From the NCBI RefSeq assembly GCF_044324785.1, contig NZ_CP172127.1: DNA of 64,000 nucleotides. One strand, given 5' to 3'. Position numbers and translations under genes: made by a program. Numbering within the stretch: position 1 is the stretch's first letter; each line of letters starts with the position of its first letter. This document shows positions 16,691 through 53,511 of this stretch, in pieces. The notes beneath the pieces were generated by a model. It was given only the letters and a program-made list of their open reading frames with translations, ran no database searches and had not been told where the DNA came from. The DNA comes from Escherichia coli (GTDB lineage Bacteria; Pseudomonadota; Gammaproteobacteria; Enterobacterales; Enterobacteriaceae).

Positions 16691-17725
16691 ATGGCTTACT
16701 CTGTTCAAAAGTCGCGCCTGGCAAAGGTTGCGGGTGTTTCGCTTGTTTTATTACTCGCTGCCTGTAGTTCTGACTCACGCTATAAGCGTCAGGTCAGTGG
16801 TGATGAAGCCTACCTGGAAGCGGCACCGCTTGCGGAGCTTCATGCCCCGGCTGGAATGATTTTGCCGGTGACCTCCGGTGATTATGCAATCCCGGTGACC
16901 AACGGTAGTGGTGCTGTCGGTAAGGCGCTGGACATTCGTCCACCAGCCCAGCCGCTGGCACTGGTTTCTGGCGCGCGTACCCAGTTCACGGGCGATACCG
17001 CTTCATTGCTGGTGGAAAATGGTCGTGGCAATACTCTGTGGCCGCAGGTGGTTAGCGTGCTGCAGGCGAAAAACTACACCATCACCCAACGTGATGATGC
17101 TGGTCAGACACTGACCACCGATTGGGTACAATGGAACCGTCTGGACGAAGACGAGCAGTATCGTGGTCGTTATCAAATCTCTGTTAAGCCGCAGGGTTAT
17201 CAGCAGGCGGTTACGGTTAAACTGCTGAACCTGGAACAGGCGGGCAAACCGGTTGCAGACGCGGCTTCCATGCAGCGTTATAGCACGGAGATGATGAACG
17301 TTATTTCCGCCGGTCTGGATAAATCTGCCACTGACGCCGCGAACGCTGCGCAAAATCGTGCCTCCACCACTATGGACGTACAAAGTGCAGCTGATGACAC
17401 CGGTTTACCGATGCTGGTCGTACGCGGGCCGTTCAATGTGGTTTGGCAACGTCTGCCAGCGGCGCTGGAAAAAGTGGGCATGAAAGTGACCGACAGCACC
17501 CGTTCGCAGGGCAACATGGCCGTAACTTATAAGCCGCTGTCTGACAGCGACTGGCAGGAACTGGGCGCGAGCGATCCAGGCCTGGCATCCGGTGACTATA
17601 AACTGCAGGTTGGCGATTTAGATAACCGCAGCAGCCTACAGTTCATCGATCCGAAAGGTCATACTCTGACTCAGAGTCAGAACGACGCGCTGGTATCTGT
17701 CTTCCAGGCAGCGTTTAGCAAGTAA
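16691..17725 (+). CDS. bamC: Outer membrane protein assembly factor BamC (NlpB lipoprotein)
   Basis: 344 aa; lipobox LLAAC|SSD; GGGAG RBS before ATG 16691; 16 bp downstream of dapA. Confidence 0.95.
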
Positions 17726-17732
17726 AAATACA

Positions 17733-17758
17733 GGGCTGGAGTCATCCGGCCCTTTTTT
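17733..17758 (+). terminator. Intrinsic terminator of dapA-bamC
   Basis: Hairpin gggctgga-gtca-tccggccc (8 bp stem) followed by TTTTTT at 17753-17758. Confidence 0.75.
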
Positions 17759-17768
17759 CTGATATGAT

Positions 17769-17784
17769 ACGCAAACGTGTGCGT
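17769..17784. promoter_or_regulatory. PurR operator (pur box) in the purC leader
   Basis: ACGCAAACGTGTGCGT matches the 16-bp pur-box palindrome ACGCAAACGTTTGCGT at 15/16; a TATGAT -10-like hexamer sits just upstream at 17763-17768. Confidence 0.65.
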
Positions 17785-17830
17785 CGGCAGAAAAATGCGA
17801 TTTTAGCGGTAATTCGCACGAAATTTGTTT

Positions 17831-17872
17831 GTCGGACGTAGGTCGGATAAGGCGTTCTTGCCGCATCCGACA
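17831..17872. repeat. REP-like palindromic element in the purC 5' region
   Basis: ggtcggataaggcgttcttgccgcatccgac has the REP signature (GGATAAGGCG...GCCGCATCC) with gtcggat/atccgac arms. Confidence 0.65.
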
Positions 17873-17936
17873 AAACATCCGGCACACCAGACAGCAAAGA
17901 TTTTAAAACGTTAATTCACACCCAGGAGTGATAAAG

Positions 17937-18650
17937 ATGCAAAAGCAAGCTGAGTTGTATCGTGGTAAAGCGAAAACCGTATACAGCACGGAAAACCCGG
18001 ACCTGTTGGTGCTCGAATTCCGCAATGATACGTCAGCAGGGGATGGCGCGCGCATTGAGCAGTTTGATCGCAAAGGTATGGTGAACAACAAGTTCAACTA
18101 CTTCATTATGAGCAAACTGGCTGAAGCGGGTATCCCGACTCAAATGGAGCGTCTGCTCTCCGATACCGAATGTCTGGTGAAAAAGCTGGATATGGTGCCG
18201 GTTGAGTGTGTCGTGCGTAACCGTGCTGCTGGCTCTCTGGTGAAACGTCTTGGAATCGAAGAAGGTATTGAGCTGAACCCGCCGCTGTTCGATCTGTTCC
18301 TGAAAAACGACGCCATGCACGATCCGATGGTCAACGAATCTTACTGCGAAACCTTTGGCTGGGTGAGCAAAGAGAACCTGGCGCGTATGAAAGAGCTGAC
18401 CTACAAAGCGAACGACGTGCTGAAAAAACTGTTCGATGATGCTGGTCTGATTCTGGTCGACTTCAAGCTGGAATTTGGTCTGTACAAAGGCGAAGTGGTA
18501 CTGGGTGATGAGTTCTCCCCGGACGGTAGCCGCCTGTGGGACAAAGAAACGCTGGAGAAAATGGACAAAGACCGTTTCCGCCAGAGCCTCGGTGGCCTGA
18601 TCGAAGCCTATGAAGCCGTCGCCCGCCGCCTGGGTGTACAGCTGGACTGA
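17937..18650 (+). CDS. purC: Phosphoribosylaminoimidazole-succinocarboxamide synthase PurC
   Basis: 237 aa from ATG 17937 ([18 protein letters not shown]...) with AGGAG RBS. Confidence 0.96.
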
Positions 18651-18666
18651 TTTTTCTGTTCATCAT

Positions 18667-18691
18667 CTTGCCGTGCAGCTGGCACGGCAAG
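18667..18691 (+). other. Perfect 10-bp-stem hairpin 3' of purC (cttgccgtgc-agctg-gcacggcaag) with no U-tract
   Basis: Perfect inverted repeat 16 bp after the purC stop; no T-run follows on either strand, so it is not a canonical intrinsic terminator. Confidence 0.4.
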
Positions 18692-18817
18692 ACAACCGCT
18701 CTCGGAAGATGTGCATTGAACGCTCATTCCTCCGCCATTTCATCCCGCTTTCCTGTGGTAATCTTCCTCTGAACCACCTACGATCATTTCTATAATGAAT
18801 ATATTGTTGAGGTATCT

Positions 18818-19681
18818 ATGCGTTGGCAAGGGCGACGTGAAAGTGACAATGTTGAAGACAGGCGCAACAGCTCTGGTGGTCCGTCAATGGGCGGTCCAGG
18901 TTTTCGCCTGCCAAGCGGTAAAGGCGGGCTGATTTTACTGATAGTCGTGCTGGTTGCAGGCTATTATGGCGTTGATTTAACCGGGTTGATGACCGGACAG
19001 CCGGTTTCCCAACAGCAATCAACGCGGTCAATTAGCCCAAATGAAGACGAAGCCGCAAAATTCACTTCGGTGATTCTGGCAACCACGGAAGACACCTGGG
19101 GACAGCAATTCGAGAAGATGGGTAAAACCTATCAGCAACCGAAGCTGGTCATGTACCGTGGAATGACGCGCACCGGATGCGGGGCGGGCCAGTCCATAAT
19201 GGGGCCGTTCTATTGCCCGGCGGATGGCACGGTTTATATCGATCTCTCCTTCTATGATGACATGAAAGACAAACTTGGCGCGGATGGCGATTTTGCCCAG
19301 GGGTACGTTATCGCCCATGAAGTCGGTCATCATGTGCAGAAACTGTTAGGCATCGAGCCGAAAGTTCGTCAACTGCAACAAAACGCGACGCAGGCGGAAG
19401 TGAACCGCTTATCTGTGCGTATGGAACTCCAGGCCGACTGTTTTGCTGGTGTCTGGGGGCATAGTATGCAGCAGCAAGGCGTTCTGGAAACCGGCGATCT
19501 GGAAGAGGCGCTGAACGCGGCGCAGGCCATCGGCGATGATCGTTTACAACAGCAAAGTCAGGGGCGAGTAGTACCAGACAGTTTCACTCATGGCACTTCT
19601 CAGCAACGCTACAGCTGGTTTAAACGTGGTTTCGACAGCGGCGATCCGGCACAATGCAATACTTTTGGTAAAAGCATTTAA
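18818..19681 (+). CDS. ypfJ: Uncharacterised putative zinc metallopeptidase YpfJ
   Basis: 287 aa; N-terminal TM segment ([15 protein letters not shown]); HExxH-type motif AHEVGHHVQ; TATAAT hexamer at 18791-18796 upstream. Confidence 0.9.
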
Positions 19682-24743: not shown

Positions 24744-24766
24744 AAGAACCTGCTGAGCAGGTTCTT
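24744..24766 (+). other. 10-bp-stem hairpin downstream of ypfM (aagaacctgc-tga-gcaggttctt), no U-tract
   Basis: Perfect inverted repeat; precedes the terminator at 24784-24812. Confidence 0.4.
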
Positions 24767-39453: not shown

Positions 39454-39487
39454 CGCTTACCCTGAATATTCAGGGTAAGCGGTTTTC
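39454..39487 (+). terminator. Intrinsic terminator of maeB
   Basis: Near-perfect palindrome cgcttaccctgaata/tattcagggtaagcg followed by TTTT. Confidence 0.8.
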
Positions 39488-53466: not shown

Positions 53467-53478
53467 CCTGTCGGAGGT

Positions 53479-53502
53479 GCCGGGTGTCCTACAACACCCG
53501 GC
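53479..53502 (+). other. 9-bp-stem hairpin (gccgggtgt-cctaca-acacccggc) between eutK and eutR
   Basis: Perfect inverted repeat 12 bp after the eutK stop and 10 bp before the eutR ATG; no U-tract. Confidence 0.4.
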
Positions 53503-53511
53503 ATTAACATC

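Follow-up and report, generated by a model that had tools for sequence, protein, structure and literature searches.

The stem-loop that follows purC in the analysed stretch of Escherichia coli DNA (64,000 nucleotides, hereafter the window) coincides with the main 3' end of purC mRNA, but it is leaky. It is an ordinary, functional-looking element which has already been mapped and which belongs to a known class of 3'-end stem-loops that lack a U-tract. We consider it fairly probable that the hairpin is a former intrinsic terminator, or the counterpart of one, that has lost its U-tract and now protects the 3' ends of purC transcripts that are either terminated by Rho or processed; an involvement of Rho, trimming by exonucleases and stabilisation of the mRNA at this site are what we infer.

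The hairpin and the 3' end of purC mRNA

The gene order on the + strand of the window is dapA-bamC-purC-ypfJ-tmcA, with the hairpin located between purC and ypfJ. Positions are those of the window and are converted to MG1655 coordinates by subtracting the window position from 2615555, which was verified on NC_000913.3.

17937-18650, + strand: purC coding sequence, based on its open reading frame and translation and on how RefSeq annotates E. coli loci with the same or nearly the same sequence
18651-18817, + strand: purC-ypfJ spacer, 167 nt
18666-18692, + strand: hairpin, with left arm 18666-18676, loop AGCTG 18677-18681 and right arm 18682-18692
18694, + strand: published 3' end of the purC transcript (MG1655 2596861, labelled 'novelTTS'; Yan et al. 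2018, PMC6131387)

The 10-bp core of the hairpin (18667-18691) reads CTTGCCGTGC-AGCTG-GCACGGCAAG, a perfect near-palindrome of 25 bp separated by 16 nt from the purC stop codon (TGA, 18648-18650). This agrees with the preliminary description, to which a further pair, T18666-A18692, can be added, bringing the stem to 11 bp with seven G-C pairs. The high stability claimed there is likewise borne out by folding of the 39-nt hairpin context, which reaches -20.1 kcal/mol versus -7.8 +/- 2.4 kcal/mol in 200 dinucleotide shuffles (z = -5.2), none of which equalled it (0/200). The hairpin in MG1655 (NC_000913.3) is identical. Perfect hairpins of at least 10 bp with loops of 3-8 nt are about ten-fold enriched in the 64-kb window, where four distinct ones occur versus 0.4 +/- 0.7 in 100 shuffles; the other three are found at 24744-24766, 39454-39481 and 53478-53503, and no obvious T-run directly follows any of them.

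Past the stem, the tail is ACAACCGCTC on the + strand and TGATGAACAG on the - strand, so that the reported lack of a T-run holds for both strands, and the tail contains at most 2 T in 8-nt windows starting 0-2 nt past the stem. A terminator scan made no call at the purC hairpin, but did call the canonical bamC terminator (17732-17758) about 900 nt upstream. Because the U-tract is absent, the hairpin is not a textbook intrinsic terminator, which had also been the view of the preliminary description. A terminator acting on the minus strand was rejected: the hairpin folds there too, but without a T-run, and no gene ends there. A small open reading frame (18610-18795, 61 aa), which runs out of frame over the end of purC and spans the hairpin as well as the SNP-dense stretch behind it, was discarded as being without support.

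On the upstream side, the published purC start 2597781 corresponds to window position 17774 and lies inside a palindrome at 17769-17784 (ACGCAAACGTGTGCGT) that is similar to a PurR box. The 163-nt purC 5' UTR also holds a REP-type element at 17841-17885. This element, a partial match to naRNA4 (31.9 bits, below the gathering score), was the sole match in an Rfam scan of 17600-19000 at a permissive E-value, which returned none at the purC hairpin.

The evidence for the 3' end comes from published transcript maps. In the SMRT-Cappable-seq data of Yan et al. (2018, PMC6131387), the M9_TTS sheet of Supplementary Data 1 gives the purC (b2476) class with TSS 2597781 and TTS 2596861. Among the 88 M9 reads that begin at this TSS, 58 stop at the TTS, another 8 do so no more than 50 bp downstream of it, and 19 run at least 50 bp beyond it and into ypfJ, the median extension being 1077 nt (PMC6131387). 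The end at 18694 is positioned 3 nt past the 10-bp stem, or 2 nt past the 11-bp stem. With 58/88 reads ending beside the stem and 19/88 continuing, the hairpin marks the 3' end of purC but leaks. In accordance with such read-through, both purC alone and purC-ypfJ (b2476|b2475) are given as operon variants from the purC TSS in Supplementary Data 2, and a 'dapA-ypfJ operon' is named in Supplementary Fig. 7 of the same study (PMC6131387). The purC TTS row appears in the M9 sheet only (PMC6131387); that it is missing from the Rich-medium sheet is expected, as the gene is repressed by PurR. Since SMRT-Cappable-seq reports steady-state ends, termination and processing are not separable in these numbers.

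A second data set gives a different picture. For cells grown in LB (two densities) and in M63 glucose, Adams et al. (2021, PMC7815308) provide curated lists of Term-seq ends, which cover only a fraction of genes. These include the end of the bamC terminator at 2597798 but no 3' end from there to 2590726. Mapping of 3' ends, proposed in the preliminary description as one way to check the element, yields the SMRT-Cappable-seq end at 18694 in M9 and none in the curated Term-seq lists. An absence of purC ends near 18691, which was named there as an outcome that would speak against the element, is contradicted by the end at 18694, and of the roles that had been offered for the hairpin, that of a 3' stability element fits best with a published end 2-3 nt past the stem (PMC6131387).

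These ends could also be produced in other ways. The hairpin might be a factor-independent, non-canonical intrinsic terminator that releases about 75% of polymerases at 18693-18695 without a U-tract. A sharp 3' end near the stem, with 58 reads at it, 8 within the next 50 bp and 19 running through, would be in line with such release. It is nevertheless well established that E. coli RNA polymerase terminates inefficiently at hairpins lacking a U-tract, and here not more than 2 T occur in 8 nt past the stem and the RNA:DNA hybrid at the point of release would be rich in C and G (ACAACCGC; the same tail with its U-tract restored would be TTTTTTGC). As a class, moreover, such ends depend on Rho and exonucleases (Dar & Sorek 2018, PMC6061677), and factor-independent release at purC is an improbable explanation.

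Alternatively, no termination might take place near the hairpin at all. purC would then be co-transcribed with ypfJ-tmcA, and the end at 18694 would come solely from RNA that is cut by an endonuclease or terminated distally and then in either case degraded 3'->5' as far as the hairpin, which would be a pure decay barrier that uncouples the levels of purC and ypfJ mRNA. The read-through transcripts and the purC-ypfJ and dapA-ypfJ operon variants (PMC6131387) are compatible with this scenario, and REP-type and other hairpins are known barriers to decay (PMC6061677). As only 19/88 reads extend by at least 50 bp, however, any full-length precursors would need to disappear very quickly. For this and for further reasons given below in connection with ypfJ, a barrier without local termination has a small chance of being correct.

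Conservation of the hairpin and the vapBC allele of the spacer

Across Enterobacterales, the position and the pairing of the hairpin are retained rather than its sequence. In 80 purC loci, taken from one genome per species, a stable hairpin is present about 10-60 nt past the purC stop in virtually all cases, with genus-specific sequences. A U-tract (at least 5 T in 8 nt) follows the hairpin in 41/80 loci, for example in Cedecea, Shimwellia, Serratia, Yersinia, Photorhabdus and Providencia, while U-poor tails are found in Escherichia (at most 2 T in 8 nt), Citrobacter, Kluyvera and Leclercia. The E. coli hairpin thus stands where other genera have canonical terminators, an observation which also suits factor-independent release.

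As variation within Escherichia is too low for an analysis of covariation (one wobble-preserving change in the stem), this was carried out in sister genera, with 13 alignable hairpins from Enterobacter, Leclercia, Pluralibacter and Pseudocitrobacter. Both sides had changed in a compensatory manner in 6/11 pairs, and 88% of cells were paired versus 40-52% when partners were slid; the observed values were reached by 1/500 shuffles. Within Escherichia, a retrieval of metagenome contigs that placed no constraint on the 27 hairpin positions gave 53 contigs with three hairpin variants only, i.e. the reference, the loop change A18677T, and C18676T, in which pairing is kept as G.U. In terms of variable sites, this amounts to one wobble-preserving site among 22 stem positions and one in the loop, versus seven in 18703-18714. 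The hairpin of E. albertii equals that of the window except for C18676T (G.U pair) and a change in the loop. Structure that is kept while the sequence turns over indicates a role at the RNA level and argues against a sequence-specific protein site. Half-sites of the operator type, which would be kept in orthologous regions, were not found, as hairpin sequences differ between genera and the pairing is retained. The suggestion of a protein-binding palindrome in the preliminary description is thus not upheld.

Three further features of the spacer concern its variation within E. coli.

18659-18725, + strand: allelic segment with the hairpin, 67 bp, in place of which about 30% of E. coli genomes carry about 830 bp
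667-1495 of locus L001 (also in loci L002 and L005): the replacement segment of about 830 bp, with vapB-vapC, a toxin-antitoxin pair (tRNA-fMet endonuclease)
18703-18714, + strand: SNP-dense stretch just 3' of the hairpin, 7 variable sites in 12 nt

The SNPs at 18703-18714 form three haplotype groups (cggaagatgtgc, cggaatatatgc and cataagatgagt), and this hot spot is flanked by two conserved elements, the hairpin on one side and the ypfJ promoter on the other.

The contiguous hairpin allele is carried by 3807/5426 complete E. coli genomes and the vapBC allele, which replaces 18659-18725, by 1615-1621/5426. The latter has a hairpin of its own, ATTTAGCCGGAG-GGTA-CTCCGGCTAAAT, which is perfect, U-poor, 13 bp long and folds at -21 kcal/mol about 20 nt past the purC stop, followed by vapB-vapC. 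A hairpin right after purC is hence retained in both alleles. The right end of the vapBC segment resembles a diverged copy of window 18703-18725, and the swapped segment is not bordered by direct repeats. Among the genomes with the vapBC allele is the GTDB representative of E. coli. As the hairpin allele is present in E. albertii, it is probably ancestral, and we infer that the vapBC form represents a divergent spacer which was imported and carries an inserted cassette. The idea that the hairpin served as the insertion target for vapBC was rejected in favour of allelic replacement, given that the vapBC allele has an equally placed hairpin of its own and a right end that resembles a diverged copy.

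Additional variants of the spacer were observed. A third, rare allele in E. coli HH45 (L138, 900-1190) has a spacer of 291 nt with a damaged form of the vapBC-allele hairpin and vapC fragments, and is thus a decayed cassette. Escherichia sp. ESNIH1 and Pseudescherichia vulneris (L027 and L028) have a hairpin TTAGCCGGAGG...CCTCCGGC about 20 nt past the purC stop, which has an 11-nt string in common with the vapBC-allele hairpin of E. coli (TTTAGCCGGAGG). This may hint at the donor lineage of the vapBC allele, or it may be a coincidence.

Taken together, the comparative data leave very little room for a palindrome that works at the DNA level, be it as the site of a dimeric regulator, as a cruciform, or as target or scar of a mobile vapBC cassette. 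Such a function could be read from the perfection of the 25-bp near-palindrome and from its location in a segment that is swapped for vapBC in about 30% of strains. It is opposed by the compensatory changes that keep a hairpin, and not its sequence, at this position between genera, by C18676T, which can pair only as G.U and therefore only in RNA, and by the occurrence of the hairpin in one place per genome across 2072 E. coli genomes and in no plasmid. As regards the cassette, the lack of direct repeats beside the swapped segment, the probable ancestry of the hairpin allele, and the replacement of one spacer by another with a hairpin at the same offset all speak against a target or scar.

The region downstream: candidate Rho loading and the ypfJ promoter

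Behind the hairpin and the SNP-dense stretch, the following features lead into ypfJ.

18715-18799, + strand: C-rich, G-poor untranslated stretch, a candidate Rho loading (rut) region, overlapping the ypfJ promoter
18756-18784, + strand: conserved ypfJ promoter, with a -35-like TGGTAA at 18756-61, a 17-nt spacer and a -10 TACGAT at 18779-84
18791-18796, + strand: TATAAT hexamer, which holds the mapped ypfJ start A18792
18818-19681, + strand: ypfJ coding sequence, with Shine-Dalgarno GAGG at 18809-18812, reached by read-through purC transcripts

The composition downstream of the hairpin resembles that of a Rho loading site. The count is 27 C to 9 G in 80-nt windows that begin at 18715-18720, a difference at the 99.8th percentile of all 80-nt windows in the 64 kb, and 34 C and 15 G are present in 18692-18790. 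As the conserved ypfJ promoter lies in this stretch too, the bias may be due to something other than Rho loading. Among the 80 loci, tails poorer in T tend to be accompanied by a greater excess of C over G downstream, a weak correlation that is uncorrected for phylogeny (rho = -0.27, p = 0.014). In the list of Rho regions by Adams et al. (2021, PMC7815308), compiled from cells in LB, where purC is repressed, nothing is given for 2594-2597 kb, and purC and ypfJ are absent from a published study of 72 terminators. The missing Rho region would fit with factor-independent release, and together with the missing Term-seq end also with a pure decay barrier (PMC7815308). Rut-like composition directly downstream of the stem, on the other hand, matches local Rho action and hence is at odds with a barrier that involves no nearby termination.

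The possession by ypfJ of its own conserved promoter with mapped starts is a further point against that scenario. In an alignment of 26 Enterobacterales, TGGTAA and TACGAT are conserved and their spacer is constant at 17 nt, with TAAAAT, TAGAAT or TATAAT as the -10 element in Erwiniaceae and Serratia. Published start sites of ypfJ are 2596784 and 2596763 (Yan et al. 2018, PMC6131387), corresponding to 18771 and to 18792, the latter 7 nt past TACGAT, and no start sites are reported downstream of the TATAAT hexamer (PMC6131387). TGGTAA-17 nt-TACGAT is consequently the better-supported ypfJ promoter, with TATAAT as the region of initiation. The preliminary description had correctly located TATAAT at 18791-18796 and assigned it to ypfJ, but it is not the -10 element, because the mapped start 18792 lies inside it. 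The motif TGgTAATCT (18756-64) could in addition double as an extended -10 for the start at 18771.

If the hairpin is indeed a terminator-derived element that protects 3' ends, the following course of events can be envisaged. RNA polymerase would mostly transcribe past the purC hairpin, and most transcripts would be ended a short distance downstream, likely by Rho loading on the C-rich, G-poor spacer, or alternatively by endonucleolytic cleavage. Exonucleases would then trim the RNA in the 3'->5' direction back to the foot of the hairpin, which would block further decay. The product would be a stable monocistronic purC mRNA with its end at about 18694, while roughly a quarter of the transcripts would run on into ypfJ(-tmcA).

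Perhaps the loss of the U-tract in Escherichia and the second U-poor hairpin with vapBC reflect a tunable termination after purC, by which a set fraction of purC transcription enters ypfJ-tmcA under purine limitation, when PurR is off. We regard this as doubtful. If true, a putative metallopeptidase and a tRNA-Met ac4C acetyltransferase would be under partial purine control via a leak sensitive to Rho or to translation, and the locus would provide a dated natural example of a switch from intrinsic to Rho-dependent termination.

Comparison with known systems

Practical consequences of these observations are small and no new question is opened by them. The hairpin explains how purC mRNA has a defined end without a textbook terminator, the assumed ypfJ promoter is corrected, and the purC-ypfJ spacer emerges as an allelic hot spot in E. 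coli, with either the hairpin or a hairpin plus vapBC.

Among known elements, REP/BIME barriers to 3' exonucleases share with the purC hairpin the nature of an intergenic palindromic stem-loop able to stabilise the upstream mRNA. They differ from it in that the purC hairpin is single-copy and has neither a REP consensus nor an Rfam match, the true REP of this locus being the one in the purC 5' UTR. Membership in such a repeat family was rejected on the grounds of one copy per genome in the 2072 genomes and a single match to the hairpin pattern in the window, even with 3 mismatches allowed.

Canonical intrinsic terminators, such as that of bamC, resemble the purC hairpin in that a GC-rich stem-loop comes soon after the stop codon and transcript ends map to it, and the hairpin occupies the same position as true U-tract terminators after purC in the six genera named above and others. 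The U-rich tract of about 7-8 nt that is expected 3' of the stem is lacking at purC, however: a canonical terminator has at least 5 T, whereas the purC hairpin has 1-2 T in 8-9 nt and receives no call in the terminator scan.

The hypothesis behind U-tract-less 3' stem-loops of Rho-dependent transcripts reportedly goes back to Peters et al. in 2012. In E. coli, U-less stem-loops at the ends of Rho-dependent transcripts have been shown, as a class, to protect against PNPase and RNase II, and a rut-like bias of C over G, or rut sites, are found just downstream of them (Dar & Sorek 2018, NAR 46:6797, PMC6061677). The purC hairpin departs from this class insofar as about 22% of its transcripts enter a gene some 125 nt away whose promoter sits inside the candidate rut region, and insofar as Rho dependence and exonuclease trimming at purC are presumed. 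In the remaining respects the two are alike. Both have a stable, GC-rich stem-loop with an energy like that of intrinsic terminators, a steady-state 3' end directly past the stem (at purC in M9) and an excess of C over G further downstream. Both lack an A-tract 5' of the stem and a U-tract 3' of it (low U content), and neither is of the REP type. Dar and Sorek have also proposed that terminators may switch type in evolution via their uridine content (PMC6061677). The Enterobacterales series, in which hairpins of differing sequence occupy the same position and only some are followed by a U-tract, illustrates such switching cleanly, and it could become a test case for the effect of U-tract loss on read-through.
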